A DNA stretch of 64,000 nt from a virus (IMGVR_UViG_3300044845_000732:1-64000), one strand, 5' to 3'. Positions 1 through 42,850 are shown, counted from the first letter of the stretch. Made by a program: numbers and translations. Notes: generated by a model not told the origin, from the sequence alone.

Positions 1-66
1 AATCATGTATCTGCAAGAGCTAAAGAATTCCTGAAACACGGTATCTCAATGATTAAAGGTCAATAA
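1..66 (+). CDS. 3' end of upstream gene (C-terminal fragment)
   Basis: Frame 1 is open from the window edge to TAA at 64-66 (...EFLKHGISMIKGQ*). Confidence 0.3.
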   Translation, partial: NHVSARAKEFLKHGISMIKGQ

Positions 67-127
67 GTTGAACTTTCAAAAAATATAATTTATAATTAGT
101 GTTCCTATTAGGGACACTTTTTTTTTT

Positions 128-511: not shown

Positions 512-744
512 AACGATTATGTGAAACGGTTTTAGGGATTTCATATAGCGGGGTTACAATATGTGATTTTGATATGACACCCACGTTTAAGTATGATAAA
601 AATTTAAGTAAATGGGTTCCGGATTCATTTGCATTGTTTGTCCAAATTAAATCACCATTACCGAGAGAATCTTATAGACCAACAAATGTCCAAGAAACTT
701 TGGAGGGTGTGTTAGGTTTTGAATGTTGTGTAGATTTCGCCTAA
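445..744 (+). CDS. hypothetical protein (possibly frameshifted continuation of 128..511)
   Basis: 99-aa ORF in a different frame with a 67-nt overlap. Confidence 0.3.
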   Translation: METETRLFCHSKFRYDMDKDRVKRLCETVLGISYSGVTICDFDMTPTFKYDKNLSKWVPDSFALFVQIKSPLPRESYRPTNVQETLEGVLGFECCVDFA

Positions 745-900
745 CTAGTTCTAGTACTAGTGCTTATTTTTCTTTTTTACTTTTTTATTATATTTTATTA
801 TTATATTATTATTCTTTTAAGAATAATAATTATTCCCTTCCCGACCAAAGTTTCATGTTTTTATCAACAATCGTATATTTATTTAGAAATAGTTTAAAAT

Positions 901-1212
901 ATGCAAAATGAATCAGTTTGGACCGTCTTAATTACAGCGTTGACCGTATTAGGTTCTGCAAGTGCTTGGAGATTTTACGAAAAAAGAGCGTTAAGAAAAG
1001 AAAAAGATGAAGATTTTGTCAGACACGATTGTAGAGATAGAATTGGTAAATTAGAAGTATTATTACAAGAAAGTAGTAAAGAGAAGGATATTATGAGAGA
1101 AACTATCTTAAAACTAACAGAATCAGTTGCTCAATTAGCAATTAAAGTTGAATTCTTACAAAAAGAAAACAACGAACTTCACGCAACATTGAAAAGTAGT
1201 AAAAATATTTAA
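901..1212 (+). CDS. membrane-anchored coiled-coil protein
   Basis: N-terminal hydrophobic helix followed by a charged coiled-coil-like region. Confidence 0.5.
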   Translation: MQNESVWTVLITALTVLGSASAWRFYEKRALRKEKDEDFVRHDCRDRIGKLEVLLQESSKEKDIMRETILKLTESVAQLAIKVEFLQKENNELHATLKSSKNI

Positions 1213-1496
1213 GAATCAAACCTTACATAAGTTTGTATTTTAGATTCAGGGTAAAAATATACCATAGAATCTTGAATTAAAACACTTGCAAGTGTGTCAT
1301 CCATAACAGATTCGTTAATTGTCTCCCCTAAAACAACCACAATTTCAAATAATAAAACATTTGTTGAAAAACTATGAGTCATTGTATGAATTTTTATTCG
1401 TGCCTTATCCCCATAGAATTCCCTAACTGCGTCTCCACGGAAATCATTAATATAACTTTCTATTAGGCGAAAGAACCTTCGTTTCTTATCTAGCAT
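1209..1496 (-). CDS. hypothetical protein
   Basis: 95-aa ORF. Confidence 0.4.
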   Translation of the reverse strand: MLDKKRRFFRLIESYINDFRGDAVREFYGDKARIKIHTMTHSFSTNVLLFEIVVVLGETINESVMDDTLASVLIQDSMVYFYPESKIQTYVRFDS

Positions 1497-1533
1497 AATA
1501 AGAAATATAACAAAATTTTATAATTAAGATAGG

Positions 1534-1680
1534 TTATTTTCCTTGCCCTTTATATGATTTCTTGTAGTTTTTAGATTGTTTTAACTTAGATGTCTTAGTT
1601 TTTGAATGAACCCCCGGACGACTAACTTTTGAAGTCTCTAATTTAACTGATGAATTTGAACCTGTATTAACTTTTGCCAT
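1534..1680 (-). CDS. small basic protein (48 aa, Lys/Ser-rich)
   Basis: ATG (cat at 1678-1680) to TAA; MAKVNTGSNSSVKLETSKVSRPGVHSKTKTSKLKQSKNYKKSYKGQGK. Below the ORF-track length cutoff. Confidence 0.3.
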   Translation of the reverse strand: MAKVNTGSNSSVKLETSKVSRPGVHSKTKTSKLKQSKNYKKSYKGQGK

Positions 1681-1745
1681 GTTATAAGTTTTTTAGATAA
1701 ATAGTCTTTTTTTGATATTTATTATTAAGTAAATTACCAAATACT

Positions 1746-1997
1746 ATGAAAAAATTTTTTAGCGAGTTATTCAATGATGAGAACTCAATTAATGAAAAAA
1801 GTGTTGTTGGCTTTTTAGCCTTCATCATGATGAGTATATTCGCAATTGCGGATATTGTCACAGGTTATTTAGGTCAAGACCTAGTAATAAACGAGTTTAT
1901 CTTCAACGCCTTTATGTGGTTAGTTTTAGGTTCATTTGGAATCGGTTCGGTTGACAAATGGATTAACAAAAACAAAGGTGAAGAAACTGAAGAGTAA
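1746..1997 (+). CDS. small membrane protein
   Basis: Two hydrophobic segments; a strong terminator follows. Confidence 0.5.
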   Translation: MKKFFSELFNDENSINEKSVVGFLAFIMMSIFAIADIVTGYLGQDLVINEFIFNAFMWLVLGSFGIGSVDKWINKNKGEETEE

Positions 1998-2003
1998 ATT
2001 AAC

Positions 2004-2033
2004 TAACCCCTCCTAACCGAGGGGTTTTTTATT
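2004..2033 (+). terminator. rho-independent terminator
   Basis: Hairpin CCCCTC-ctaacc-GAGGGG followed by a T-run. Confidence 0.6.
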
Positions 2034-2052
2034 TATTGAGGTATTTATAAAT

Positions 2053-3033
2053 ATGAAAATTAAAATTACCGAATCTCAATATAAATTATATTTGAAGGAA
2101 CAAAATATTGTAGATGTAGCAAAATCTTTAGAGGTTGTTATGCCGACAATTTCCCCAATTCCAAAAAGTAAAACACAAGCGGCTAAGGTTATACCAAAAA
2201 TATTAAATTCTGAGGGTATTGGTACTTATGATTTTTCTACTGACGGGACTGACGTTAATTTAAATTTAGATGTTAAAAAAATGGTTGATAGAATTCGATT
2301 TTATCAATATTTTATTAGTTTACAAGAGGAAACTGATGGTCGTGGGTTCTTCTTTGAAGGTTTGATGGCTGGGTTATTTACCGGTGGAGTTGCAATACCA
2401 ACAACTGAAGGTAATCGAGAAGGTACTATGGCTGACATTATGATTGAAGGGGTTCCTTATTCTGTTAAACTCACAATTCCCGGGGAAAGATATTCACTAG
2501 GGTCATTAAATAAAGGTTTAAAAGTTGCGTTACAAGGTATTTCAGAAGATGATACATTATCAGTTGAAGGTATTAAAAAACCATATGATTTAATGAAAAA
2601 AGGACCTGAATATGATTTTTATAAAAATCAAATGATGCAAGTTTCTTTTAATAATGTAAATTGGATATTTGGAGTATTACCTAAAACGGGAAATGTTATT
2701 GAATACACTGTAAAAAATAACGAAGAAGTTATGGATATGTTGTTGAGAAAAGCAAATTCAGGTAAAGTTAGTTCTTCGATATCATTATCTCATAATGATG
2801 CTCTATCAGGAAATAGAAAAACTATTACTTTTCCGATTATAGATGTAAATAAAATAAATAACTTTAGGTATAACAAAGAAAGAGGTCAAAAAGCTGATAA
2901 AATTGCTGAATTATTTGGAAAATATTCAAAAAATATTCGTTATGATGTTTTGGAGTATATTAGAAAAAATCCTGACGCTTTTTTAAAAAGAGTTATAAAT
3001 TTATATGGTGACAGATTGAAAGATTTAATATAA
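2053..3033 (+). CDS. hypothetical protein
   Basis: 326-aa ORF with no recognisable motif. Confidence 0.6.
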   Translation: MKIKITESQYKLYLKEQNIVDVAKSLEVVMPTISPIPKSKTQAAKVIPKILNSEGIGTYDFSTDGTDVNLNLDVKKMVDRIRFYQYFISLQEETDGRGFFFEGLMAGLFTGGVAIPTTEGNREGTMADIMIEGVPYSVKLTIPGERYSLGSLNKGLKVALQGISEDDTLSVEGIKKPYDLMKKGPEYDFYKNQMMQVSFNNVNWIFGVLPKTGNVIEYTVKNNEEVMDMLLRKANSGKVSSSISLSHNDALSGNRKTITFPIIDVNKINNFRYNKERGQKADKIAELFGKYSKNIRYDVLEYIRKNPDAFLKRVINLYGDRLKDLI

Positions 3034-3038
3034 TTTTA

Positions 3039-3046
3039 TATCTTTG
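3039..3046 (+). promoter_or_regulatory. Bacteroidetes-type -7 box TAtcTTTG
   Basis: TATCTTTG lies 5 nt upstream of the ATG at 3052. Confidence 0.4.
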
Positions 3047-3051
3047 CACCT

Positions 3052-3279
3052 ATGGCAATAGAAGTTACTAAAAATACAAAAAGACAAGTAGTTTACGAGG
3101 ATGAACAAAGTACTACCATTTGGAAATATGACTCATCTATAACAACTTTTGGACCTGTAGAGGTCGAAATTAGGCATAAAAAGGGGTATGAATGGTCTGA
3201 CCCATCTAAAAAGAAAACTTTAGGAGATTTAGCAAAAGAAGCTAAGAAAAAAACTACAAGAAAATCAAAGATTTCTTAA
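3052..3279 (+). CDS. hypothetical protein with a basic C-terminus
   Basis: 75-aa ORF just downstream of the -7 box. Confidence 0.45.
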   Translation: MAIEVTKNTKRQVVYEDEQSTTIWKYDSSITTFGPVEVEIRHKKGYEWSDPSKKKTLGDLAKEAKKKTTRKSKIS

Positions 3280-3900
3280 TTGTTTGTCTATAAGAAATTT
3301 TAGACTAACAAGAGTGTCTTTGTCTAATTTAGGAATGAGTTTTTCGGTATTTTCTAATAATTTTCTTGGGTTACGAGATTCTTGGACATTATTTGGAGCC
3401 TCTTTAACTCTATCAATTCCCCAATCATTCATTTCCCAATTATCATAATCGGTACTTTTTAAATTACCGGAATAAACATCCCAATTACCATCGTTTCTTT
3501 GTGAATATAAAGAATCTGTCACCCAATCTTTATCGTAACATGAGAAACGAGTTTCATAATATTCGATAAATGTGCAAGTACCATTAGTAGTATATTCAAC
3601 TAAATAATCTTTTGATTGTGGGATTATAAGTTGTTCTATCATTGACTTATCTCCATTAGATATTTGAGAAAGCAAACCACTATTAATTTCCAAAAATTTC
3701 ATAAAAAATTGGACATCATCTTCTACGACTGATTCGTCAAAATATTTGGATATTTTTGAAAGAATATTTTCATTGTCGTAATACACAGCATCATAGTTAT
3801 GAGTAATATCATCCCATTCAAATCCATCTTCGATAAGTTTATTCGCAATAAAAACTAATTGTTTTTTTGGAAATCTTGAAAAGTTACTTTGGTCTGCCAT
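3265..3900 (-). CDS. hypothetical protein
   Basis: 211-aa ORF. Confidence 0.55.
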   Translation of the reverse strand: MADQSNFSRFPKKQLVFIANKLIEDGFEWDDITHNYDAVYYDNENILSKISKYFDESVVEDDVQFFMKFLEINSGLLSQISNGDKSMIEQLIIPQSKDYLVEYTTNGTCTFIEYYETRFSCYDKDWVTDSLYSQRNDGNWDVYSGNLKSTDYDNWEMNDWGIDRVKEAPNNVQESRNPRKLLENTEKLIPKLDKDTLVSLKFLIDKQLRNL

Positions 3901-3924
3901 ACTAATAAATACAACAAAAGGTGG

Positions 3925-4221
3925 TTATTCACCACCTTTATGTTCTCTTTTTAAATAATCAACCAAATTTTGTAATTTGTCTGAATCTTCCGGATTAAAG
4001 ATAAATTCATCAAATGCTCCGTATCTACATTGTCTTCCAAAGATATATCTCAAACCATAACCAACTCTCTGCCAAAATGGGCGTTTGGTTAAATGTGTGT
4101 GAATATAAACCGTTGGATATGTTATACCCTCAATTTCGTCCTCAGCGTATAGAACAACCATTTGATGTTCAGTTGAATGACAATCACAAATTAATAAATC
4201 TTTTTTATTTTCCATCTTCAA
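3925..4221 (-). CDS. hypothetical protein
   Basis: 98-aa ORF containing a CDCH motif. Confidence 0.4.
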   Translation of the reverse strand: MKMENKKDLLICDCHSTEHQMVVLYAEDEIEGITYPTVYIHTHLTKRPFWQRVGYGLRYIFGRQCRYGAFDEFIFNPEDSDKLQNLVDYLKREHKGGE

Positions 4222-4909
4222 TAAAATTTACTTCGTTTGTATCCGGATTCCAATCAATAGTCATTGGTCTTTGTGCATAATTATATCTCTCATCTAAAAC
4301 CGCTGAGTTAAAATGGTGTGTATCGCCTTTTCTAACATAACCATAACCGGTGTGGATATGACCAACATTATGAATTTTAACGTTTAATCTCTCTAATCTT
4401 TCAACCAATAACTCACAACCTAAATTATCGTATCTTCTACCATCAACGGTGTCTAATATTCCAAAGGCCGGTCCGTGAGTTAGTAAAATATCAGTATCAT
4501 CAGGAATTCCTTCCCATTTGCCTGAAAGAGCAATACCATTTTTTTGTAAATTGAAAGCCCAATCGTGAAACCAAGGTTGCCAAGGACTACCATAGATTTT
4601 AACTTCTCTCTCATCACCAACTTTTATTACTAATTCACTATCTTGAAGATAGGTTATTCCTGAGTAAAATTTCAAAATTTCTTTTACTACTTCAGTGTTG
4701 TCTTGGAATCCCCAATCGTGGTTTCCTGCAATGAATACCTTGTGAGTATAACCTTCAATACCATTAAACCACTTACAGAACTCTCTGATTTCGTGCTCGT
4801 AACCCATTGAAGAGATATCACCACTATGTACCAATAAATCACCACCCGGTAAATCACCGGTAATTTGTTTGTGTTTGTTGTGTGTGTCTGAAATAAGTGT
4901 TATTCTCAT
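4205..4909 (-). CDS. calcineurin-like metallophosphoesterase
   Basis: Motifs DTHNKH, GDxxxxG, GNHD and GHxH. A TAtcTTTG box sits 17 nt upstream (4926-4933). Confidence 0.7.
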   Translation of the reverse strand: MRITLISDTHNKHKQITGDLPGGDLLVHSGDISSMGYEHEIREFCKWFNGIEGYTHKVFIAGNHDWGFQDNTEVVKEILKFYSGITYLQDSELVIKVGDEREVKIYGSPWQPWFHDWAFNLQKNGIALSGKWEGIPDDTDILLTHGPAFGILDTVDGRRYDNLGCELLVERLERLNVKIHNVGHIHTGYGYVRKGDTHHFNSAVLDERYNYAQRPMTIDWNPDTNEVNFIEDGK

Positions 4910-4944
4910 TAGTTCTATTTTTTTACAAAGATAACAAAAATATT

Positions 4945-5145
4945 CTAATTTTCGTCATAATCTTTTCTATTTTCTTTTTCTTCTTTGTCCCAAAGATTAA
5001 TATCTAATTTGTCATCCTCATTCCAATTTAACCAATCTTCACCTTTATAATCAGGGTGGTTTTTTTGCATATTTGTAATTGAGTTAACCCATAAAATACA
5101 TAAAGCAACAACCACAATAAACATCAATAAATAAACTTTCCACAT
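4945..5145 (-). CDS. small membrane protein
   Basis: Hydrophobic N-terminus followed by an acidic tail. Confidence 0.35.
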   Translation of the reverse strand: MWKVYLLMFIVVVALCILWVNSITNMQKNHPDYKGEDWLNWNEDDKLDINLWDKEEKENRKDYDEN

Positions 5146-5277
5146 AACTATTTGTTTTTAATTTTTTCAACAATTGCGGATATAATTAAGGTGGTAATAA
5201 ATCCTCCAAAAATTACTAAACCAATATAAGATTCTGATTCCATATTTATAATTTTATTGATAAATATTACGGTCAGA

Positions 5278-5913
5278 CTAATCCCACCATCCTTCGATGT
5301 TTTCTTCCATTATTTTGAATAACAATTTTCTAACTCTATCGTGATTTATGTATCCGATATTCATAGCAATTAATTGTTTATCATCCTCACGACCTTTTCT
5401 ATTAATAATACCCTCACCATTTAACACTCTTTTGTAAATTAATGGGTATTTTTTAAAATAATCGTCAAAATTTTCCTCTAATGTTCTTGATTCCCAAGAT
5501 GATAATCTTTCGTCACCCGGAACTGGTTCAAACCAATGTTTTGTTTTATGATAATCTGAGTATTCTGACGAATAAAACTCATCTTGAACCAATTTCATTA
5601 GTTTAACACACAATTTCATTCTTTTTGCGTCTAACTGAGCTCGAGTATGTAAATCTCTACGACCAATATAGTCGGCTTGAGACGATAATTTGTGTTTCAT
5701 TATCTCAAAGATGTAATGACTATCCCAATTTCGGTCTTTCCATATGATTGGGAACCAATAAATTAGGTTTTTTACACCTCTTTTGAATTCAAGATGTAAA
5801 TATTTCCCTTCGTGGTCCCACCATAATGGAATAAACCGTAATTTTCTTACAATCCATGGTTGTTTTTCACGTTTTTCCGCCCATTGTTCAAATATGTCTT
5901 TTTCTGGCTCCAT
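5278..5913 (-). CDS. hypothetical protein
   Basis: 211-aa ORF; a TAtcTTTG box lies at 5930-5937 on the minus strand. Confidence 0.55.
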   Translation of the reverse strand: MEPEKDIFEQWAEKREKQPWIVRKLRFIPLWWDHEGKYLHLEFKRGVKNLIYWFPIIWKDRNWDSHYIFEIMKHKLSSQADYIGRRDLHTRAQLDAKRMKLCVKLMKLVQDEFYSSEYSDYHKTKHWFEPVPGDERLSSWESRTLEENFDDYFKKYPLIYKRVLNGEGIINRKGREDDKQLIAMNIGYINHDRVRKLLFKIMEENIEGWWD

Positions 5914-6051
5914 TTTTTAATATTTTTTACAAAGATAGTAAAAAAATAAGACCCGTCAAAATAAATTTACGGGTCTTTTGGAAAAAGATATATGAGAACA
6001 CTCTCAAAGGAGTGGTGTGTATGAATAAATACACTAATATTCTAAAAAAGT

Positions 6052-6315
6052 TCAGTTAGTCGTATTGTGAACGAACTTTTTTTTGAATGTTATAGAAATT
6101 CTTTTTTGATGAAAACTACTCCAAAAATTATTTCTCAATCTTCTTAAGAATTTTGATTCAATACTATTAACTCCGGTATCCAAATGATTAATAACCCAAA
6201 GATTAAAACATTTTTCTGCACAGTCTAAATGTTCTCTTGTTTGAGAAGATTCTAAAACTTTTACCGCCCATTTATAGTTGGTAAGTGCCACTTTTAAGTT
6301 AGTAGATATTGCCAT
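6052..6315 (-). CDS. hypothetical protein
   Basis: 87-aa ORF; a TAccTTTG box lies at 6334-6341 on the minus strand. Confidence 0.4.
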   Translation of the reverse strand: MAISTNLKVALTNYKWAVKVLESSQTREHLDCAEKCFNLWVINHLDTGVNSIESKFLRRLRNNFWSSFHQKRISITFKKKFVHNTTN

Positions 6316-6366
6316 AGTTTTATTTTTTTTTTACAAAGGTAATGAAAAAAATAAAATATCAAAAAA

Positions 6367-7188
6367 TTATTTTAATAAATTATAATATTCTTTAAAATGC
6401 TTAATTCTATCAGGTAAACCAATAGTTCCACCATTTACTCTTTTAGTTACTGCCGTTACTGTTGCGTCGTCAGCTCCTTTATCACAAATAGACCAAAGTT
6501 TGTTTGAGTCGAAGAAGAATGCTGCTGATGCTAATGGATATTTTGTTGCGACTAAATCAGGATTTGATACAGTATCTTCACCGATAAATTTCGCGAAGTT
6601 TGTATAGTTTTGTTTTCCTGTTAATTGAATATAACCACGACCTCTGAATTTGAAACCATCTTTTGATGCCTCATCTCCATTACCCATTCTTCCACCATAT
6701 ACTTTTGATGCAATTTTTTCAGGGTTTCTTGCGTAAGATTCTGCTAAGTTGCCCGGAAAGTATTTTGGGAAGATTTTTTTAAGACCATCAGCAGAATAAT
6801 TTACATTTTCAGAAACTGCTTTAAATCCACCTGATTCATGACCACATTGTGCCAAGAAATGAGCTAATCTTAATGGATTAGTGATGTTGAATTTTTTTGC
6901 AGTGTCAGGAATTTGAACAATTACTGATTCCGGAATGTGTCCTTTTAATTTTTCTAATTTTAATGGTCCTCCCGATGGAATAACGACATCTTCTTTAATG
7001 ATTTCCCCCGGAAACATTTTTTTCCAAGTTCCATCACCAACAATCCCGTCAGATGTTAATCCATTTTTAGTTTGCCATTCTTTAACCAATTTTTCAGTTC
7101 CGGGACCGAAAACACCATCAGGTGTTGTCCCTAATTTTGATTGAAGTTTTTTAACTTCTTCGCCTTTTGAGCCATTTTTTAGTATCAT
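6367..7188 (-). CDS. endolysin: N-terminal peptidoglycan-binding domain plus GH19 lysozyme/chitinase-like catalytic domain
   Basis: PG_binding_1-like repeats (LQSKLGTTPDGVFGPGT, KNGLTSDGIVGDGT). GH19-type motifs AHFLAQCGHESGGF, YGGRMGNG and GRGYIQLTGKQNY. Confidence 0.7.
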   Translation of the reverse strand: MILKNGSKGEEVKKLQSKLGTTPDGVFGPGTEKLVKEWQTKNGLTSDGIVGDGTWKKMFPGEIIKEDVVIPSGGPLKLEKLKGHIPESVIVQIPDTAKKFNITNPLRLAHFLAQCGHESGGFKAVSENVNYSADGLKKIFPKYFPGNLAESYARNPEKIASKVYGGRMGNGDEASKDGFKFRGRGYIQLTGKQNYTNFAKFIGEDTVSNPDLVATKYPLASAAFFFDSNKLWSICDKGADDATVTAVTKRVNGGTIGLPDRIKHFKEYYNLLK

Positions 7189-7225: not shown

Positions 7226-8200
7226 TTAGTCCTTTTTACCCGTTCTTATTAAATAAAAATTTGAAGACCCCCCATTTATCGGAGAATTAATGGTAAAACT
7301 TTGAACACCGGGATACGAAATTCTTAAATCAGTAGTTGAAGAATTTAGAATTGAATATTGTGATGGTGTGAAGATTCTTGAATTAGGAAGTGAGGTTTCC
7401 CAAGAAGAAAATCTACCGGATTTTTTCATAAAAATGTAATATGAATCCGATATATTGATTCTACCATCGTTATTAACGTCATATCTATAATAATCTAATG
7501 AAGTTAATGTTCTTGATATTGATTTGGTATTTGATTGTTGTGCATCAACATTTTCTAATAAAGGTGGAGTGGATGGTGTACCAATTTGTAAATACCATTC
7601 AACTGAAGGGTTTGAAGCTTCATTAATTGAGTATCTCCCATTAGAATCTGTGTAAACACTTTTTACGTATGCCCATTCCGTAAATGTTACAATATACTCA
7701 AACTCCAAAACATATGGTAATGAAATATTAGGTAAATCATTCCATTTACCACCACCAACAAATTGAATATAATCTTCATTACCTGCGTTATTTGGTTCCC
7801 CACCATTCCAATTAGACCAAGAAAAGGGTTCATTTGTAACCCATCTCCAAGTACCTTCTGATACTTCATCTGTTAATCCAATCCAACCATTTGGCCATAG
7901 ATTAAATATAAAGTTATTCTCAGCGGGTGAAGTTACTGTAACTAAATGACCTCCCATGTTTAAACACGCCTGTCTTGCATCCGTCCAAGTCATCGAACCG
8001 GTTGAACGATAATATGAATGTCCGTTATAATTATTTTGAGAGGTAAACCCATTTAAAGTTGGTGTTGTTCTTTTATACAACTTTACTTCCATATTTTGAA
8101 TACCACCACCTACCGAGTTATAGATATAACCCGAGTAAGTAAAATTTTGACTCCAAGAGATTGTTGAAAATAAAAGTAATATGTAGAATAACTTTGTCAT
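7226..8200 (-). CDS. secreted C-type lectin domain protein (EPN motif)
   Basis: Signal peptide. CTLD signature CLNMGGHLVTVTS...WIGLTD...GEPNN...EDYIQF..GKWNDL. Confidence 0.7.
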   Translation of the reverse strand: MTKLFYILLLFSTISWSQNFTYSGYIYNSVGGGIQNMEVKLYKRTTPTLNGFTSQNNYNGHSYYRSTGSMTWTDARQACLNMGGHLVTVTSPAENNFIFNLWPNGWIGLTDEVSEGTWRWVTNEPFSWSNWNGGEPNNAGNEDYIQFVGGGKWNDLPNISLPYVLEFEYIVTFTEWAYVKSVYTDSNGRYSINEASNPSVEWYLQIGTPSTPPLLENVDAQQSNTKSISRTLTSLDYYRYDVNNDGRINISDSYYIFMKKSGRFSSWETSLPNSRIFTPSQYSILNSSTTDLRISYPGVQSFTINSPINGGSSNFYLIRTGKKD

Positions 8201-8647
8201 TTATTGTTCTAATGCGTTTTGTATTGCTTTTTTTAATGCCGAAGAAAATGCCGATTTTTCAAAAGGGAGATTTTCATCCTGTAATTCTATAAATGTTGAT
8301 TTTACATCAGTATTTGAATCACCAACACCTTTATATTCTTTACCATCTTTAGTGATAATTAAAGTAACTATTGTTTTTTTTCTTTTTCTTTCGAATGGTC
8401 CTAATGATATACCCGTTGAAGGTGCTTCAATACTTTCGATTAAGACTGACACAGGTTTACCATCTTCGCATATTGTATTGTTAACCGATAATATTTCTTC
8501 GGTTATTTGTTTAACACCTAAAGTAAATCTTTTTGGGTTAACCCCTTCGATTTCTCCGTTGTTTTTAATGTCTTTCACAGTGTAACAATTTTGTGAGAAT
8601 GATGTTAATGAACCTAACATCAGTAATGTAATTAATAATTTTTTCAT
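8201..8647 (-). CDS. secreted protein
   Basis: N-terminal signal peptide; immediately follows the lectin gene. Confidence 0.5.
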   Translation of the reverse strand: MKKLLITLLMLGSLTSFSQNCYTVKDIKNNGEIEGVNPKRFTLGVKQITEEILSVNNTICEDGKPVSVLIESIEAPSTGISLGPFERKRKKTIVTLIITKDGKEYKGVGDSNTDVKSTFIELQDENLPFEKSAFSSALKKAIQNALEQ

Positions 8648-8649
8648 GG

Positions 8650-10107
8650 TTATAAAAATGCTTTAGCTCCAAGTAATACTTGGTAGTTTAGTGGTTGGTC
8701 ATTTATTTGTTGAACACCACTAAAACTTATGTTTAGTTTAAATTTTTTAGTTAGTTTATAGTCAACAGCGACAAATGGGACCGCTAATAAACCTGATTGA
8801 TACCATATTCCTTCATAGTAATAAACAAAAGGTGAGTATACGACAACAAACATTGTTGTTAAACCCATTTTTTTATTAACATTAAAACTACCAAAACCAC
8901 CTCCTAATGTTGAGATACTTTGGAATTTAGAATCTCCTAAATTTCCTGTTGTGTAGTTAACCCCTACCGTTGTGGTGATTTTTTTTATTTGGTAAGACTC
9001 CATCACTGAAGTGGTGTTAAAAAAATCTTTATCAAAATTCATCATAGATGAATTTGCGATAATAGTTGTTGATTTTTTATAACGATACGACGCAAATAAT
9101 GTGATATTTGTGTTGTTAATTTGACTTGTGTAGTTAACTAACGCTCCTTTTGCAAACGTATTTTTAGTGTTTGATGAAATAATACTTGTATTTACTCTTA
9201 TTTGAGAAGGGTCAGTACCGGAGGCACTCCCTATTACAACAATATCACCTGTCATCATTAAACTACCTTTTTTAACAGCTGCGACTTTACTTTTAGTTGA
9301 CGAAGAGGATGATGATGATGATGATTGTGCGTCATCAAGTTTTTCTTTATCAGATTTTTCGGTATTATCTAATCTAACAGAATTAATTCCACCTGTAATA
9401 TTACTTGCTCCTGAGGAATTATTATTATTTGGTGTTGTGGAGTTATTAGTATTTGGTGTTGTATTATTACCGGAAGTTACAGGTGACTGAGACGACTGAC
9501 CTCCTGTTGTAGTTGGGTCATTTGAATTTGAAGTCGTTCCTCCTTGCGGATTAGTTCCGTTTCCAACTCCTGAACCATTGTTTTGATTTCCCCCGCTTTG
9601 CGAAGTTCCTGAATTTGTGTTAGTAGTTGTTGTACTTCCTCCGTTAATATTAGTTGTTGCATTATTTTCTATTTTAGTTTTATCCTTCTGTCTTTCATTA
9701 TTGGATGATACTTTTTCATCCGCTTGAATAACACCTTCCACATTTGACATACCTGCAGATGATATTGAAGACATTGAGGTCAATACAGTAGTTATTACTT
9801 GTATGTTATTGGCAGCAATAGTTGCGTTTATTGATGTGTTTTGTAATAAACCAACCCCACTACAAGGACCTGATGGATTTTGAGAATCCACTTGGTTTAT
9901 CCATTGTTCCATGGCACCTGATTGAAGTTGAGCGTACGTAAAACTTTGAACAGAACCATTATATGATAGTACTACACTTTGGCTTGGGTTTGGTATGTAA
10001 ATTTCCTTGGTTTTAGAAGTACAAGGGTCTGCATAAGAATATGTAAACCCTTGACCTAATACCATAGTTGTAAATATAAGAAATAAAAATGAGAATATCG
10101 TCTTCAT
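8650..10107 (-). CDS. secreted low-complexity (S/T/N/G-rich) protein with a C-terminal beta-barrel-like domain
   Basis: Signal peptide. Long disordered S/T/N/G tract. C-terminal ~200 aa of alternating hydrophobic beta-strand pattern ending in ...GAKAFL. Confidence 0.5.
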   Translation of the reverse strand: MKTIFSFLFLIFTTMVLGQGFTYSYADPCTSKTKEIYIPNPSQSVVLSYNGSVQSFTYAQLQSGAMEQWINQVDSQNPSGPCSGVGLLQNTSINATIAANNIQVITTVLTSMSSISSAGMSNVEGVIQADEKVSSNNERQKDKTKIENNATTNINGGSTTTTNTNSGTSQSGGNQNNGSGVGNGTNPQGGTTSNSNDPTTTGGQSSQSPVTSGNNTTPNTNNSTTPNNNNSSGASNITGGINSVRLDNTEKSDKEKLDDAQSSSSSSSSSTKSKVAAVKKGSLMMTGDIVVIGSASGTDPSQIRVNTSIISSNTKNTFAKGALVNYTSQINNTNITLFASYRYKKSTTIIANSSMMNFDKDFFNTTSVMESYQIKKITTTVGVNYTTGNLGDSKFQSISTLGGGFGSFNVNKKMGLTTMFVVVYSPFVYYYEGIWYQSGLLAVPFVAVDYKLTKKFKLNISFSGVQQINDQPLNYQVLLGAKAFL

Positions 10108-10823
10108 TATTCTTTAAAAACCCCTTTTTTAATTAATTTAGAAACAACTCTTGAAGATGCGGTTTCTAAAGATTTTTTTGTTGATATACCAATTGTTGAT
10201 TGGTTAAATTTAATTTCATCTACGTCATCTAAAAGAGATGATGTTTTTACTGTGTTAGATTCACCTAACCCACTACCGGTTATAACTTCTCCTGTTTGTG
10301 CATCAACAAATCTAATTTGTAAACCTAAACGAGTTGTTTGAGTTATTTTTGCACCTTCACTTCCTTTAATCACTTCGTCTTCCGACACACTGAAATCGTA
10401 AACTTCTATGTAAACAAAATAGTTCGCTAAAATTACATTACCTTTAACTTCTATTTTATTACTTGAAATTCCTTTATCAGATGCCTTATCTTGGGCAATC
10501 ATTTTGTTTTTGATTTCCGCTTTATCCTCAGTGAATTTAAACCTATCTGTTGATTCCAAATACTCTAATACAATATTTGCAACCCCAAGACCTACTCGTT
10601 TATCTTTTAGTTCCGGGTACATCTCATATATCTCATCGTTAATACCAATTTTTAATATTTGGATTGGTATTACAATGTCACCATTATAATCACTAACAAC
10701 ATCTAAAGATTGTTTTTTTTCAAAATCGGCTTTATAGTCCTCAGTTTTTATGGTTCCAATAGTTTGAGATAATCCAATACACGAAAAAAGTAAAAAAGGT
10801 AATAGTAATACTAACTTCTTCAT
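10107..10823 (-). CDS. lipoprotein
   Basis: Start taken at the internal MKKLVLLLPFLLFSC (lipobox). The track ORF extends upstream from a non-ATG start. Confidence 0.55.
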   Translation of the reverse strand: MKKLVLLLPFLLFSCIGLSQTIGTIKTEDYKADFEKKQSLDVVSDYNGDIVIPIQILKIGINDEIYEMYPELKDKRVGLGVANIVLEYLESTDRFKFTEDKAEIKNKMIAQDKASDKGISSNKIEVKGNVILANYFVYIEVYDFSVSEDEVIKGSEGAKITQTTRLGLQIRFVDAQTGEVITGSGLGESNTVKTSSLLDDVDEIKFNQSTIGISTKKSLETASSRVVSKLIKKGVFKE

Positions 10824-10824
10824 C

Positions 10825-11163
10825 CTACCAAGGGTCTTCCTCTTCTTTTGGTTTAACAGGTGCTGGTTGTGCCGCAGGTTTTTCCACAACTTTTTCTCTG
10901 ATGATTGTGTTAGTACCACCACCATTGTTTTGTTGTTTTTGTTGGTTTGTGTTGTTGTTTTGTAGATTGATAACTACAGGTGCTGCCGCAGGTTGTGCAA
11001 CTTGTTCTGTTTTTGTTTCTTCTTCATCACTATGACCTCCAAATAATTGTGTTGATAACCATATACCACCACCACCAATAACTGTGGTAAGTGTACCTAT
11101 TATAGTTTTCTTTAATCCTGACCAAGTACCATCATTTTGTGTTTCTTGCGTTTCTTCTGACAT
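10825..11163 (-). CDS. membrane protein with a Pro/Ala/Gln-rich tail
   Basis: One TM segment (IIGTLTTVIGGGGIWL); stop abuts the start of the lipoprotein gene. Confidence 0.45.
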   Translation of the reverse strand: MSEETQETQNDGTWSGLKKTIIGTLTTVIGGGGIWLSTQLFGGHSDEEETKTEQVAQPAAAPVVINLQNNNTNQQKQQNNGGGTNTIIREKVVEKPAAQPAPVKPKEEEDPW

Positions 11164-11231
11164 TTTAATTTAATTTTAATTGTTTATTTCCTTCTTATAG
11201 GCTTTGGTGTCACAAATTGTGACACCATAAA

Positions 11232-13115
11232 TTATTTACGGATAATCTTATTAGATTCTATTCCCGTACCTTTTTTAAGAGTAACGATGTAAGTCCCTGA
11301 AGGAAGGTGACCAACATTTGTACTATATCTGTGTTCTCCTGAATTTAAATCAGTACGAACAATTGTTTTAATTTCTCTACCACCCAAATCATATAAAGAC
11401 AACCAAACATTACCTTCTTTTTCTACTGTAAATTTGACTGTGATTTCATTATCAGTTGGATTTGGATATGTCACCATATATTCTAAATCGGTTGGTTTCA
11501 TAACTCTCATGATTTGAATAATTCCGTTTGTTGGTATTATTTTCAAATCTTTAGCAATTGAATTTCCTGAGAATTTTTTTGTAACATATAAAGGACTTAC
11601 ACCCCATTGACTTTGAATTTCTTTCGCTATGAATTGTAGCGTGAATGCTAATTCGTTGTCGTTTAATAATTTCGTATTTTTTGTTGGGTCATAACCACCC
11701 CACTCAACAATATTATCATTTGTGTTAACATAAGTTATCCATCCACTAACTTTATTCTCCGCTCTAACACCTGTAAAATCTAATAGATTACTATTGTAAT
11801 TTAGTGCTAGTTGTAAAGAACCTAATTGAATTCCATTTGTTTTTACAAGAACAGGAACCTCAACTCTACTATTTTCATTTACCGTTAAACTTGGATAGTT
11901 TAATTCGATTGTTTGTAATGTTGGGTTGTCATAAGTTGTTGTAACATCAATAATATTTGATGGTGCGTTTAATGGGTTTACGATTTCAATTGGGGTCATA
12001 CGAGCCATATTAAAACCAGTACCATTAGCGTCTCCTTTAACTAAGACATAGAAAGTAACTGTTGTTGTACCCGGTAAAATATTGTAAACAAGATTTGTTA
12101 CACCCGGAATTGTAGATTGTAAAGATGATGTTGCTCCATTAATAGAAGTGTATTCTGAATCTGAGAAGAATTTAACATCTTTAACCGTATTAGGCCAAGA
12201 ACTAAATCTTCCTGATACTCTACCAAACACACCATACACATCAGAAATTGATATGTTGTTGTCACCATTAACATCAGATGAATAGAAATCAAATCCTGTT
12301 GGAGTATCTTGACCTAAAACAAATCTGTTGATTTTTTGTGAGTCAGATGTAGAAATGATATTCGCAATTGTTAGTGATTCACCATCTACTCTAATACGAA
12401 CGTCATAACTTGTAACATCTAATGGTACATCCGTAAATGTGAAAACACCAGAGTTATTTGTTTGTGTTGTTGACGCTTGAACCCAAGTTGAAGATGTCAT
12501 TAATTTTTTCTCTAAAATAACCGGAATTAATTTTGACCCCGTTCCTGTTACGTTAGTGAATGTACCACTAAACGAAAATAGTTGAGGTAAAAACGCTCCA
12601 CCAAAGTTTTGTAAATTTAAAGTATAGTCAGAACCATTTTGTTTTGTTGCAGTTTGTGGGAATGTTTGAACACCACTAAATGTCATGGGTTGAACAGACG
12701 ACAAACTCGCAAAATTTGCTGAGTGTACTAAATTTAATTTTACAAATGACCCATCTGATAATTCAAAATTGGAATCATTACCTGTGTAAGTTAGAGTAAT
12801 CGTAACATATCCATTAGCAGGACTATCCTGAAATTGAATATATTGAGGAAACGATGTATTTGACGATACAACAGAAGACACTGATGTGAATGCTGCGGTA
12901 TCATAAAACACTCGAAACTGAGCAGCCGTAACTAACTCCGTAGTATTGTTAAAAAAACATAAACCTACTTCAGTATTACCAGCAGATGCCGGTGCTAATT
13001 GATAGGTTGCGTCTAATGTAACAAAAACTCCGGTAGTTGTCGGTGTCGGACAAATTTGGGAATAACCCAGTGAAGTCATTATAAGGAATGACAGCGCCAT
13101 AAAAAGTTTTTTCAT
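11232..13115 (-). CDS. secreted protein with a T9SS (Por) C-terminal sorting domain
   Basis: Signal peptide. C-terminus YPNPTDNEITV...LSLYDLGGREI...GTYIVTLKK...KIIRK matches the T9SS CTD consensus. Confidence 0.72.
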   Translation of the reverse strand: MKKLFMALSFLIMTSLGYSQICPTPTTTGVFVTLDATYQLAPASAGNTEVGLCFFNNTTELVTAAQFRVFYDTAAFTSVSSVVSSNTSFPQYIQFQDSPANGYVTITLTYTGNDSNFELSDGSFVKLNLVHSANFASLSSVQPMTFSGVQTFPQTATKQNGSDYTLNLQNFGGAFLPQLFSFSGTFTNVTGTGSKLIPVILEKKLMTSSTWVQASTTQTNNSGVFTFTDVPLDVTSYDVRIRVDGESLTIANIISTSDSQKINRFVLGQDTPTGFDFYSSDVNGDNNISISDVYGVFGRVSGRFSSWPNTVKDVKFFSDSEYTSINGATSSLQSTIPGVTNLVYNILPGTTTVTFYVLVKGDANGTGFNMARMTPIEIVNPLNAPSNIIDVTTTYDNPTLQTIELNYPSLTVNENSRVEVPVLVKTNGIQLGSLQLALNYNSNLLDFTGVRAENKVSGWITYVNTNDNIVEWGGYDPTKNTKLLNDNELAFTLQFIAKEIQSQWGVSPLYVTKKFSGNSIAKDLKIIPTNGIIQIMRVMKPTDLEYMVTYPNPTDNEITVKFTVEKEGNVWLSLYDLGGREIKTIVRTDLNSGEHRYSTNVGHLPSGTYIVTLKKGTGIESNKIIRK

Positions 13116-13203
13116 AGTTTAATAATATCTTGGTAATTTATTACCTATAAATATTCTTATTAAAGTTCGGCACCTTAGTTATGGTATTTATTTATAAAAA
13201 AAC

Positions 13204-13662
13204 ATGAGATTTATCATATTATTAATGTTGTTATTTTCCATTCAATCGTTTTCACAAATAATCATTGATGATGTTGGTGAAGGGTGGAAAAAAAATGTTG
13301 AAAAAAGTTTGGAAGTGATTCAAAAAGTGGATTCATCCAAGTACGACGTAGTAATTAAACAATGTAAACGGATAGGGTTTTGGAATAATAAGTTTTCAAC
13401 CACTGAAGGTAATGATGTTATATTGATATCTAAACAAGACATTCAATCTGGTAATATCAACAATTTATCGGCCATAATTATTCATGAATCGAAACATTTA
13501 TATTATAGGAATAATAACATATTTTTAGATGAGAGGGATGAAGAAATTTTATGTTATCAATATGAATTGGGTTTCCTTAAACAAATACCTTTAGTTGAAG
13601 ATTGGTTAATTAATCATTGTGAAAATATGATTAAGTATTATCGTAGTTTAAAACAAAAATAA
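13204..13662 (+). CDS. secreted small protein with an HExxH motif
   Basis: Signal peptide; contains IIHESKHLYY (HExxH). Confidence 0.45.
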   Translation: MRFIILLMLLFSIQSFSQIIIDDVGEGWKKNVEKSLEVIQKVDSSKYDVVIKQCKRIGFWNNKFSTTEGNDVILISKQDIQSGNINNLSAIIIHESKHLYYRNNNIFLDERDEEILCYQYELGFLKQIPLVEDWLINHCENMIKYYRSLKQK

Positions 13663-13690
13663 TTGAAGTATTTATAATAAAATAAAAAGA

Positions 13691-14257
13691 ATGAATAATT
13701 TAAGGGAAATAATTAAAGAGACATTAGGGTCTCACTTAGATAAGACTTTAATATTAAAAGAAGATGTAAAAGTTTCTGAAGTATTATCTTACCACATTAA
13801 TGAAGGTATGTCGTTAAACGATAATGTTTTTAAAACCTATTCTCAAAAATATTTTGATTTGGTTAATGAGGTTAGGACATTATGGAATGAGGGTAAAATA
13901 GACCTTAATGAAAAAGACACCTTAATGGTTGAGTCTGATTTGGGAGTTAGGGTTAAAAAAGGAGATGAAATGATTTATTTAGACGCTCCTTACATATACG
14001 AAACAGAGGACGAAAAGAATATTTTAAATAAACCTGAAAGAGAAGGAACTAATAAATTTGCGGTATATGTTAAAACACCTGATAACGGTGTTAAGAAAAT
14101 TACATTTGGTGACCCTAAATTAAAAATTAAAAATGATTATAAAGGTGATATAAAATCTTTTAGAGAGAAACACAAATGTGACCAAAAGAAAGATAAAACA
14201 ACTGCAGGTTATTGGGTTTGTAATATTGGACGATATTCGAAACAACTTGGATTATAA
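13691..14257 (+). CDS. hypothetical protein
   Basis: 188-aa ORF. Confidence 0.5.
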   Translation: MNNLREIIKETLGSHLDKTLILKEDVKVSEVLSYHINEGMSLNDNVFKTYSQKYFDLVNEVRTLWNEGKIDLNEKDTLMVESDLGVRVKKGDEMIYLDAPYIYETEDEKNILNKPEREGTNKFAVYVKTPDNGVKKITFGDPKLKIKNDYKGDIKSFREKHKCDQKKDKTTAGYWVCNIGRYSKQLGL

Positions 14258-14261
14258 AAAA

Positions 14262-14292
14262 AAATACCCCGTAATTGGGGTATTTTTTTTTA
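14262..14292. terminator. bidirectional rho-independent terminator
   Basis: A-run, hairpin ATACCCC-gtaatt-GGGGTAT, T-run, placed between convergent genes. Confidence 0.6.
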
Positions 14293-15471
14293 TTCTGGAC
14301 TTTGGGTACAATCTTCTTCATAACCGATTTCTTCTCCAACTTGATGAGCTCCTCCGATTTCAATGTTTTGTAATCTTATTCCCATTGATTCTCTAAGATT
14401 TTGAATTCGTCTTCTAAGTGGTGAAATATTTTCTTCAGTCATATCTTCACCAATTTCTTCCATGATATTGTTCATTTCTTCTCTAATTTCTCTACCTAAA
14501 GGTCTTAATTGAACAACTCGAGGTTCAACACGTCTTTCTTCCATGTTAAAATTAATTTGTGGAATTGCCTCTTCCATCATTGGTGTTTCCACCTCATACA
14601 TTGGTCTTTCTACCTCCTCATATCTATCTTCTTGAACTAATGATTTTTCCATAGAACGACCACATTCTTTACGAACTTGTGTTCTAATTTTAGTTGAAGA
14701 CAAATCTCTATTGGTTTCTTCCGATTTCAAAATTTGTTTAATAATTGGGAACATATAATCATCTATATCTAATTCCAAGAAATCGACTCTTTGGTCCGCA
14801 GCATTCCAAAAACTTAATTCTTTATCTCCATCAAGAGCTTTGAATACGGCAAATTTTAATCCGGTGATTTTATTAATAAAATAAACTAAAATACCTCTTT
14901 TCCAATATCTTTCAAAATACTGTTTATCATTTTGGTAAGTTGTACACCATTTAGTTGCCGCTCCGTATTTGGATGACGCTCCAAATGTTAATGGTCTTAA
15001 TGCCAACCAAGTTTCGTCATCGTGTTCTCTAACGATTTGAGACCTCAATTCTTTCTCATCTTCTTTTAGAGATGCTAATCCAACAGATGACCTGATTTGT
15101 TCAAAATTTTGGTAAGAAGTGACATCATTATTTAGTATTAAACCTCTTTCATTATATTTTCGAAATGATGCTAAAAGTTGCATATCTTCATTACTAAAAT
15201 GGTCTGATAAACAATAATGAGCATAAATTTCATTATTTGACATACCATTATAATTTAAACCCATAAGGTCCAATCTTTCTTTAATATGATTCATTTCATT
15301 TTCTTCGTCACGTTTGTGCCATAATTTATTCACTTGGAATCTTGATGAAAATAATTTACACATTAAAGGCAAGTATTTGTTTGTTTTGGTACTATCCATT
15401 TTTAAAAACAAATCGATTATTGATATGTTTAACTCAGGATACTGTTTTTTAATTTCTGTGATTTTTGACAT
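14290..15471 (-). CDS. hypothetical protein, paralog family with an RPLT..SSKYGAxTxWCTT motif
   Basis: LRPLTFGASSKYGAATKWCTTYQNDKQYFERYW also occurs in 52556..54037; acidic C-terminal tail. Confidence 0.55.
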   Translation of the reverse strand: MSKITEIKKQYPELNISIIDLFLKMDSTKTNKYLPLMCKLFSSRFQVNKLWHKRDEENEMNHIKERLDLMGLNYNGMSNNEIYAHYCLSDHFSNEDMQLLASFRKYNERGLILNNDVTSYQNFEQIRSSVGLASLKEDEKELRSQIVREHDDETWLALRPLTFGASSKYGAATKWCTTYQNDKQYFERYWKRGILVYFINKITGLKFAVFKALDGDKELSFWNAADQRVDFLELDIDDYMFPIIKQILKSEETNRDLSSTKIRTQVRKECGRSMEKSLVQEDRYEEVERPMYEVETPMMEEAIPQINFNMEERRVEPRVVQLRPLGREIREEMNNIMEEIGEDMTEENISPLRRRIQNLRESMGIRLQNIEIGGAHQVGEEIGYEEDCTQSPE

Positions 15472-15583
15472 AAGTTATTTAGTTTGATTAAATTATAATT
15501 TTTTTAATTAAATGGGTCAAATACAAATGTAAATTTTAACATTTTAATTTTTTTCGTATGATTAAATGTAGTATATTTGCATT

Positions 15584-16009
15584 ATGAAAACAATAACCTC
15601 ACTTTTATTTTTATTGATTCCATTTATGGGATTCTCTCAGGATGCGGACTTAATGTATGTACCGGACCAAAATACAATTGTTGCAACTTATAACAGCAAT
15701 TACTCTCCAATTGGGTATTATGTTGGTGGGTATATCACAACGACCCGTCCACAACCTTACATCTACACAACACCGATGTCAATTTTAAATCGTGTTGGTA
15801 TTAACTTAACTAATCATAAGGTAAGTTTAATGGGTGGAGTGTTTATGGAGACATATATTGACGAAATTAAGTTCAAACCTGATGTGTGGGTTAAAGCATA
15901 CCCATTAAGAATATTAACCAATACCGATAGAGGGTTTGATTTCGTGGTTGGTGTAAACTACATGGAAGGATTTAGATACGGAGTCGGTGTTGTAATTCCA
16001 TTTCGATAG
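15584..16009 (+). CDS. secreted beta-rich protein (possible small OM beta-barrel)
   Basis: Signal peptide followed by alternating aromatic/hydrophobic strands. Confidence 0.5.
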   Translation: MKTITSLLFLLIPFMGFSQDADLMYVPDQNTIVATYNSNYSPIGYYVGGYITTTRPQPYIYTTPMSILNRVGINLTNHKVSLMGGVFMETYIDEIKFKPDVWVKAYPLRILTNTDRGFDFVVGVNYMEGFRYGVGVVIPFR

Positions 16010-38002: not shown

Positions 38003-38005
38003 AAA

Positions 38006-42688: not shown

Positions 42689-42694
42689 CAATTT

Positions 42695-42766: not shown

Positions 42767-42773
42767 CAAAAAT

Positions 42774-42845: not shown

Positions 42846-42850
42846 CAATC

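Follow-up and report, generated by a model that had tools for sequence, protein, structure and literature searches.

A conserved gene module for predicted envelope proteins, including a C-type lectin and a type IX secretion cargo, in large phages of Bacteroidota

Results

A minus-strand block of predicted exported proteins

Within a 64,000-nt stretch of viral DNA (IMGVR_UViG_3300044845_000732:1-64000, hereafter the window), we examined a minus-strand gene block at positions 7226-13115, for which an initial annotation had proposed six consecutive genes encoding secreted proteins. Inspection of the block reveals six minus-strand open reading frames (ORFs), named here A to F in order of increasing coordinate, with spacings that range from a 1-nt overlap to a gap of 68 nt. 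Signal-peptide-like N-termini ending in ...S↓Q or ...G↓Q (the arrow marks cleavage) are recognizable in A, B, C, D and F by a heuristic reading of n-, h- and c-regions. The signal peptides originally assigned to all six products hold for these five, and E falls outside the set with an acidic N-terminus and a membrane helix. Glutamine at position +1 of the cleavage site is a habit of Bacteroidota. Across the whole window, seven of the eight signal peptides with such a Q site fall within 7226-16009, which argues that their clustering is not due to chance.

Protein A and its C-type lectin head

Protein A (324 aa; 7226-8200, minus strand) comprises a signal peptide, a C-type lectin-like domain (CTLD, approximately residues 55-168) and a module that it shares with F, hereafter Mod, and it has no C-terminal sorting domain (CTD) of the T9SS (type IX secretion system). 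The initial annotation had ascribed to A a CTLD with the full WIGLTD/EPN/WND signature, and profile comparison bears this out. A scores 61.3 bits against Pfam Lectin_C (PF00059; cutoff 22.6, E = 1.7e-16) over residues 69-157, far above the cutoff, and the motifs WIGLTD, GEPNNAGNEDY and KWNDLP can be read directly in its sequence. In the PDB, A matches animal CTLDs down to E ~1e-23, including those of DEC-205, Endo180, CD23, DC-SIGN, langerin and MBP. Alignment with CTLD2 of Endo180 brings the EPN, Glu-Asp and WND positions into coincidence, with FEPNNFRDSLEDC..GRWNDSPC of Endo180 aligning residue for residue with GEPNNAGNEDY..GKWNDLP of A. A has in common with the animal carbohydrate-recognition domains of MBP, DC-SIGN, langerin and Endo180 CTLD2 the motifs WIGL, EPN and WND as well as the Glu-Asp pair. 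Unlike these domains, A is encoded by a phage, carries its CTLD within a loop of a sandwich and has a signal peptide for the bacterial envelope.

Two disulfides are a defining property of C-type lectins, and they are absent from A and from 38 phage homologues. A holds a single cysteine (Cys79), such that one of the four canonical CTLD disulfide cysteines is retained; relative to Endo180, EDC has become EDY and both C-terminal cysteines are gone. Across the 38 unique phage homologues, EPN..ED..WND is invariant and the same three cysteines are replaced, and this invariance of a site-intact, Cys-poor CTLD argues that the sugar site is under purifying selection. The search with the CTLD segment returned only these 38 homologues, most of them fragmentary, a yield that is uninformative on how frequent CTLDs are in bacteria. 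Taken at the level of sequence, the head of A is predicted to be a C-type lectin of the mannose/GlcNAc (EPN) type that would bind sugar without disulfides. We also considered a variable lectin of the kind diversified by diversity-generating retroelements and set it aside, as A has a canonical Lectin_C domain with an invariant site and not the Mtd-type fold.

The CTLD of A is inserted after the first strands of the CarboxypepD_reg-like sandwich of Mod, and relatives share the segment FTYSGYIYN..VKLYKR at the N-terminus of A regardless of which head they bear. Among these relatives the head is a CTLD alone, a CTLD with Laminin_G_3, GEVED, PA14, or a CTLD with Ig_7. A thus exchanges its head from one lineage to another. 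A disulfide-free EPN C-type lectin within a beta-sandwich would be an unusual and compact lectin scaffold.

Protein F resembles a scaffold with a T9SS sorting domain

The largest product of the block, F (627 aa; 11232-13115, minus strand), consists of a signal peptide, a first cohesin-like domain (Coh1, approximately residues 56-157), Mod (approximately 196-365), a second cohesin-like domain (Coh2, approximately 407-501) and a type-A CTD (550-627). By the same heuristic reading, the signal peptide is MKKLFMALSFLIMTSLGYS↓Q, with an n-region, an h-region and cleavage at ..GYS↓Q. Residues 550-627 of 627 match Por_Secre_tail (PF18962) with 42.6 bits (cutoff 27, E = 7.5e-11), and the extreme C-terminus matches TIGR04183 with 41.4 bits (cutoff 23, E = 1.1e-10). 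Both scores exceed their cutoffs, in agreement with the earlier description of a 627-aa protein that ends in a T9SS CTD, and F is predicted to be a T9SS type-A cargo protein that the host would export. Scanned as a whole, F matches Pfam Cohesin in two stretches with 34 bits (cutoff 24.1, E = 3.9e-8), and its orthologue in the cultured vB_FspM_immuto phages (hereafter immuto) is named "cohesin domain-containing protein" in GenBank.

Mod is a CarboxypepD_reg-like sandwich of ~165 residues with one EF-hand/dockerin-type loop, DVNGDNNISISD, and it is common to A (161-324) and F (197-364; BLASTP E = 3e-18). Of 121 unique family members, 67 have a single DVNxDxx(I/L/V)x(I/V)SD loop. Among relatives, F is fused in 53 ORFs and otherwise split into a Coh1-Mod protein without a CTD (22 ORFs) and a Coh2-CTD protein (20 ORFs), with a signal peptide on each half where the split occurs; more than 20 related loci have the split form. 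This pattern of fusion and fission argues that the two halves work together. By analogy, the set of F and A proteins resembles the logic of a cellulosome, in which Coh2-CTD would be the anchoring piece, Coh1-Mod the adaptor and the head plus Mod the payload. The likeness lies in cohesin-like domains on an anchored scaffold and a calcium-loop module on the partners. The differences are that a dockerin has 60-70 residues and is duplicated, where Mod has one loop within a beta-rich module of 165 residues; that the payload here is a lectin rather than an enzyme; and that the anchor is a T9SS CTD. Binding between the partners is, in this comparison, a prediction.

Proteins C and E as a putative barrel and tether

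Protein C (485 aa; 8650-10107, minus strand) has a signal peptide, an N-domain of ~110 aa with two conserved cysteines (FTYSYxDPC...GPC), a linker of ~150 aa rich in S/T/N/G/Q and a C-terminal beta-barrel that most resembles the 14-strand barrels CymA and OmpG. The initial annotation had likewise recognized an S/T/N-rich protein with a C-terminal beta-barrel-like domain. In the immuto orthologue the final residue is aromatic, as is typical of outer-membrane proteins, and C is most simply read as an outer-membrane beta-barrel protein of the 14-strand type. A type Va autotransporter combines an N-terminal passenger with a 12-strand barrel that matches the Autotransporter profile, and C does not have this combination.

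Protein E (112 aa; 10825-11163, minus strand) is a bitopic membrane protein for which we aligned 20 homologues. It begins with an acidic N-terminus (MSEET..), continues through a Gly-rich membrane helix (approximately residues 17-43) into a low-complexity linker of P/A/Q/N and ends in ..E(E/D)(S/P)W, which is invariant in the alignment. E has no Pfam or NCBIfam match and only weak PHROG matches at E ~0.006; PHROGs give no match for A, B, C, D or F. We read E as a putative inner-membrane tether with its N-terminus inside and a disordered linker in the periplasm. Together with D and B, described below, C and E would span the inner membrane, the periplasm and the outer membrane.

Proteins D and B belong to a CsgG/LptE/PelC-like fold group

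Protein D (238 aa; 10107-10823, minus strand) is a secreted alpha/beta protein and the best-conserved product of the module, with 69-99% identity among relatives. Its start is most likely the methionine of MKKLVLLL (10823), which abuts the stop codon of E, rather than the start at 10925. The earlier description counted two lipoproteins in the block, a claim that the alignments do not support. D has an LFSC lipobox here, and its cysteine is missing in 9 of 16 aligned relatives, all 16 of which have a Q-ending site of the signal peptidase I type, so that D was downgraded as a lipoprotein. In B (148 aa, secreted; 8201-8647, minus strand), the invariant Cys21 is preceded by N, E, K or D, residues that make no lipobox, and B was rejected as a lipoprotein; Cys21 most likely pairs with a second conserved cysteine near position 60.

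D alone matches nothing in Pfam or the PDB, and a profile built from its close homologues finds nothing in the PDB or against E. coli CsgG. The link to CsgG surfaced only via distant relatives from an exhaustive representative search, which returned 251 relatives of D. Among 39 full-length distant relatives, 20 match Pfam CsgG (best E = 5.6e-24) and 11 match LpoB. The profile of these distant relatives aligns with E. coli CsgG at an hhalign probability of 92.5% (E = 5e-7) and reaches CsgG structures in the PDB at E = 0.0012. JGI pipelines also label D as CsgG. We place D in the CsgG/LptE/PelC/LpoB fold group, with a relatedness to CsgG that holds at the superfamily level only. B is a shortened paralogue of D: the two families align over 117 columns at an hhalign probability of 94% (E = 1.5e-7), and tblastn with B matches a D-like paralogue in one of the compared loci (L093).

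Such a relationship raises the question of a secretion pore, in which D would be a CsgG-type channel and B a counterpart of CsgE or CsgF, exporting unfolded C or A for fibre assembly or macromolecule uptake, in line with a proposal made for the curli genes of pelagimyophages. The profile-level tie of D to CsgG and the JGI label fit this explanation, as do the loss of three of the four CTLD cysteines from A, which would suit export in an unfolded state, and the long low-complexity G/N/S/T/Q region of C. Several observations speak against it. D itself has no Pfam CsgG match, and its fold matches LptE, PelC and Cj1090c no less well than CsgG. CsgG contributes two amphipathic hairpins per subunit to a 36-strand barrel; the D model instead shows one long polar hairpin (residues 135-174) with a charged, acidic SEDE tip that contains the invariant E148-D149-E150, a provisional result given a low pLDDT (predicted local distance difference test) of 62.9. 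It is for this single polar hairpin that we do not file D as a CsgG channel. In addition, D has no conserved lipid anchor, C is an integral barrel protein in its own right, and Pfam, NCBIfam and PHROG scans of the neighbouring genes detect no csgE, csgF, csgA or csgB partners. A Foldseek search of the D model against BFVD gave low TM-score matches only and is uninformative. Taken together, we consider a secretion pore highly unlikely.

The module is conserved across a clade of large phages

A search with D identified 155 related viral stretches, from which 80 loci were fetched, with gene order judged in those of sufficient length. In every sufficiently long locus of these ~80 viral contigs, the order F-E-D-C-B is kept on one strand, and A either follows B, which is the arrangement here, or precedes F, which is that of immuto. 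The immuto phages carry the whole set, in which the only named products are a "lectin C-type domain-containing protein" and a "cohesin domain-containing protein", with the others listed as hypotheticals. When one genome per species was scanned, close D homologues appeared only on contigs of metagenome-assembled genomes (MAGs) that hold the same module and are probably phage, and tblastn of D in 50,697 phage records recovered only the immuto phages and no pelagiphage CsgG. The initial annotation had allowed that the block might be absent or variable among related phages, as recently acquired host cargo would be. It is neither, and the constant order across ~80 loci led us to reject that candidate. 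Judged by its synteny, the block is an old, vertically inherited and fixed module and not recent cargo.

Metagenomic contigs that hold the exact D protein of this block reach 222 kb, and contigs of IMG/VR relatives reach 308 kb. The sole cultured relatives are the immuto phages, which have genomes of 160 kb and infect Flavobacterium sp. LMO8. This host, the type-A T9SS CTD of F and the Gln +1 signal peptides support a Bacteroidota host for the phage of the window, as the T9SS domain had first suggested.

Conservation of this depth bears on a further explanation. The initial annotation had suggested that the phage may remodel the host surface, as superinfection exclusion or receptor masking, or may build adhesins. 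In the version weighed here, the genes would form a moron for superinfection exclusion or receptor masking, with secreted proteins that cover or alter the host surface early and block other phages. The proteins do appear to be exported, and the lectin head varies by lineage as host receptors do. In immuto, the module follows replication and nucleotide-metabolism genes, the former of early/middle type, with no GH19 endolysin nearby. Bellas et al. suggested roles in competition or superinfection for variable T9SS cargo (PMC7468147). Against this explanation, the fixed order across a deep clade and the 69-99% identity of D leave no room for a recent moron, the module is usually tied to an endolysin, as described below, and eight or nine genes with an envelope-spanning complex far exceed known exclusion systems. 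Early exclusion is, in our estimate, quite unlikely.

The immuto gene just upstream of the lectin gene (immuto26A_12, locus L001, 7902-8480) encodes a nuclease of the endonuclease G/NUC1 type with a signal peptide ..LLSFS↓Q, and its product is probably a secreted nuclease.

Bacterial and divergent counterparts

Distant D-like proteins with clear lipoboxes occur in MAGs of the Fibrobacteres-Chlorobi-Bacteroidetes (FCB) group, namely in Ignavibacteriales, Rhodothermales, Bacteroidota, KSB1, Cloacimonadota and Chitinivibrionales. The D-like gene mostly has as its neighbour a gene for a barrel protein ending in ..LGxxxRF, and mostly also one for a second D-like protein. Sets of this kind lie at L089 4979-7611, L091 787-3591, L092 6931-11416 and L090 9002-11319. 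In L092 (Cloacimonadota) a T9SS-CTD protein lies directly upstream, and no second D-like protein is seen within the short sequence left after the barrel gene. In some loci the set is accompanied by fusions with caspase, transglutaminase or TPR domains, or by a protein with a T9SS CTD. No Pfam family covers the bacterial barrels. By analogy with these loci, the phage probably took the C/D/B/E half of its module from an FCB-type bacterial system. FCB genomes would then harbour an uncharacterised outer-membrane system of D-like lipoprotein, barrel and second D-like protein.

A very divergent version of the module occupies positions 1-7000 of an 11-kb marine contig labelled Candidatus Pelagibacter sp. 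TMED203 (NHJA01000023.1; L095). It encodes a counterpart of F with a T9SS CTD, a barrel of 290 aa, a protein with a transmembrane (TM) segment plus coiled coil, and counterparts of D (here a lipoprotein), C and B, and even here the FxYSYxDPC motif of the C N-domain is kept. The presence of a T9SS CTD makes an origin in Pelagibacter unlikely, and the contig is probably a mis-binned Bacteroidota phage; tblastn of its D-like protein in the 50,697 phage records again recovered only the immuto phages and no pelagiphage CsgG. A PorP/SprF-like identity for the 290-aa barrel was set aside, as the likeness is one seen by eye and has no Pfam match.

The module usually adjoins an endolysin gene

An endolysin with PG_binding_1 and a GH19-type lysozyme domain (6367-7188, minus strand; phrog_181 at 5.4e-68, and Pfam) lies downstream of A, 37 nt away and on the same strand. 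Across 21 distinct lineage classes, counted only where at least 4 kb of flank is available on both sides, an endolysin of this type is no further than 1.5 kb from the module in 15, and often within 40-100 bp. It is found on either side and on either strand of the module. That the two stay adjacent through rearrangements speaks for a functional link with the end of infection. At the DNA level, the sole match between the 10-kb region and GenBank phage records is the endolysin gene itself (6368-6871), which shares 75.5% identity with LR745206.1, the record of an uncultured "huge phage" of 634,780 bp.

The gene on the opposite flank, G (152 aa; 13204-13662, plus strand), encodes a small secreted protein, is divergent from F and adjoins the module in most lineages. 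An alignment of homologues shows an invariant HESxH with a downstream EE..Y..E, and family matches are all below threshold and mostly to different metallopeptidases (SprT-like, Tox-MPTase2, DUF2268, M56, M76 and M48). G is probably a mini metallopeptidase of the zincin type.

Such linkage makes it necessary to weigh a lysis device, in which E, D, B and C would breach the outer membrane after the endolysin has acted, replacing spanins. E would serve as an inner-membrane arm or as holin/antiholin, D and B would act in the periplasm and C in the outer membrane, with A, F and G as accessories. Bacteroidota phages are not known to have recognisable spanins, and an arrangement of this kind could reveal how phages of this phylum breach the outer membrane. 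The endolysin linkage fits a lysis device, both in 15 of 21 lineage classes and in the 37-nt spacing here, as does the coverage of inner membrane, periplasm and outer membrane by the components. E is a type-II-like membrane protein that directly precedes D, which has an LFSC lipobox here, and L095 has the TM plus coiled-coil protein between its F-like and D-like genes, not adjoining D. CsgG pores of pelagimyophages and of Melnitz have been proposed to time lysis (PMC9004378).

Other observations speak against it. An i-spanin is a type-II protein of the inner membrane whose periplasmic domain is a coiled coil; beyond its membrane helix, E consists of low-complexity P/A/Q/N sequence up to a conserved Trp at the C-terminus, and a coiled coil is not evident. 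An o-spanin is a small outer-membrane lipoprotein encoded in or next to the i-spanin gene, whereas D is an alpha/beta protein of 238 aa whose lipobox is not conserved, and beta-barrels and 238-aa ring proteins resemble no known spanin or disruptin. A lysis device would also leave the T9SS-exported cohesin scaffold and the exchangeable lectin heads unexplained. Moreover, FCB bacteria keep the trio of D-like protein, barrel and B-like protein outside phage contexts, and the immuto module has no adjacent GH19 endolysin. We regard a lysis device, the main rival to the explanation preferred below, as rather unlikely.

We assign a somewhat smaller likelihood, and still an unlikely one, to a further explanation in which E, D, B and C form an unrecognised trans-envelope machine derived from the FCB system, with its CsgG/LptE-fold ring and barrel, serving either an outer-membrane-breaching step of lysis or the export and anchoring of A and Coh1-Mod as CTD-less partners of a cohesin scaffold delivered by the T9SS. 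Under the second option, the phage would build a cellulosome-like "lectinosome" on the infected cell.

A tentative model of lectin display around the infected cell

The explanation that we tentatively prefer, at somewhat below an even chance, is that the phage builds an envelope complex out of C, D, B and E, and that F, as a cohesin-like scaffold exported by the T9SS, holds the lectin A on the infected cell or around it. The block would then be part of an eight-to-nine-gene envelope module of a large clade of jumbo-size Flavobacterium/Bacteroidota myophages. Proteins of the LptE/PelC/CsgG fold typically make rings or plugs below barrels. In the proposed arrangement, C would sit as a beta-barrel in the outer membrane with D and B in the periplasm beneath it, and E would tether the assembly from the inner membrane, with its invariant ..EEDPW tail docking. 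F would leave via Sec and then through the host T9SS by means of its type-A CTD, and Mod of A would dock onto the cohesin-like domains of F in the manner of a cellulosome. A phage lectin with affinity for surface glycans of the host type would then cover the infected cell or its debris. Late in infection, such a coat may aggregate neighbouring hosts or mask glycan receptors around the lysing cell; we prefer late action to early superinfection exclusion because the module usually adjoins the endolysin. Domain identities, conservation, synteny, the splitting of F, the swapping of heads and the endolysin linkage are observed, and all protein contacts, localization, timing and the biological role are inferred.

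Several results weigh against lectin display of this kind. Taken singly, the cohesin-like domains of F score 22.9 and 23.1 bits, just under the cutoff of 24.1. Dockerin_1 scores 13.8-15.6 bits against Mod, under its cutoff of 22.9, and each protein has one DxNxDxxIxxxD loop and never the two calcium loops of a true dockerin. Because of this sub-cutoff score and the single loop per protein, we do not file F and A within the cohesin-dockerin family; by analogy, they may work like such a system without being members of it. The confidence of the AlphaFold2 model of D is low (pLDDT 62.9). The phage C barrel and the bacterial barrels align at an hhalign probability of 0.4%, at which homology is undetectable, and the parallel between them is therefore architectural and positional only. 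No route is known by which A or Coh1-Mod, neither of which has a CTD, would cross the outer membrane. Finally, the position of the immuto module beyond replication genes, with no GH19 endolysin near, implies that late timing is not general.

Comparison with known phage and bacterial systems

Phage-encoded type-A T9SS cargo that varies between variants was described in Cryophage (Bellas et al. 2020, Nat Commun 11:4403, PMC7468147). Cryophage and the phages studied here are alike in having FCB-group hosts and type-A sorting domains, and a PA14-domain protein is among the Cryophage cargo. The Cryophage cargo genes are separate and variable (an endoglucanase, a GH39 protein and the PA14 protein), whereas the module described here has a single CTD protein, a cohesin-like scaffold that belongs to a fixed module with a barrel, CsgG-fold proteins, a tether and a lectin.

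"Curli pore" genes for CsgG and CsgF, without curli subunits, were reported in pelagimyophages (HTVC008M) and in the Methylophilales phage Melnitz, with sibling capture, macromolecule uptake and lysis timing as the proposed functions (PMC9004378). These are also large aquatic myophages with a tmRNA and CsgG-superfamily genes (PMC9004378). In contrast to their CsgG, D is much more distant and probably lacks membrane hairpins, and the hosts here are Bacteroidota. Their CsgG is partnered by CsgF, whereas D is accompanied by the barrel C, its paralogue B, the tether E, the T9SS scaffold F and the lectin A.

LptD-LptE and PelB-PelC are machines that combine a barrel with a lipoprotein, and D and C show no sequence-level membership in either. 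C is of the 14-strand type (CymA/OmpG-like), in contrast to the 26 strands of LptD and the 16 of PelB; the lipid anchor of D is not conserved, and genes for lipopolysaccharide or Pel are absent here.

Our searches of the literature turned up no account of the combined module. Phage T9SS cargo (described once) and phage CsgG/CsgF pores are each known separately. If lectin display is correct, a widespread clade of aquatic Flavobacterium phages would spend ~6-7 kb on an envelope complex of its own and would hijack the host T9SS so that an exchangeable protein with glycan-binding activity comes to lie on the infected cell or around it. This would be a concrete and testable case of a virus re-engineering the Bacteroidota cell surface, and it could account for aggregation of hosts or protection of progeny from debris. 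A cultured model is at hand in vB_FspM_immuto on Flavobacterium sp. LMO8.

Other features of the window

The 68-nt gap between F and E contains a perfect 10-bp palindromic stem-loop (11205-11227). We rejected it as a terminator, as a U-tract is absent on the coding (minus) strand, and it may be a processing or stability element. Downstream of the endolysin by 1.2 kb, a 66-aa ORF (4945-5145, minus strand), whose product has one strongly hydrophobic helix at its N-terminus and a C-terminus dense in charged residues, is a holin-like candidate without a family match. On the other side of the module, positions 15584-16009 (plus strand) encode a beta-rich protein of 141 aa with a signal peptide ..MGFS↓Q, the end ..VVIPFR and no family match, which may be a small outer-membrane protein.

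A scan for sigma-70 promoters gave 47 against 47.9 expected; this lack of enrichment is what a Bacteroidota system would lead one to expect. The window has a GC content of ~31% and looks like a piece of a very large phage genome. Inspection of its remaining content reveals an array of 20-21 tRNA genes that covers most amino acids (42605-47304, plus strand) and a full-length tmRNA (54539-54935, minus strand; Rfam 69.7 bits). A big tRNA array together with a tmRNA is typical of very large phages. In addition to the endolysin, the window codes for ThyX, a Lon-like protease and two carbamoyltransferases, the last of which are encoded by tandem Nol-like genes (36413-39670, minus strand; phrog_1601, E = 1e-88 and 1e-104). 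Two further ORFs on the minus strand, at 22211-23038 and 29308-29844, have good lipoboxes (..AMSC and ..LFSC, respectively) and, unlike B, are genuine lipoprotein candidates.

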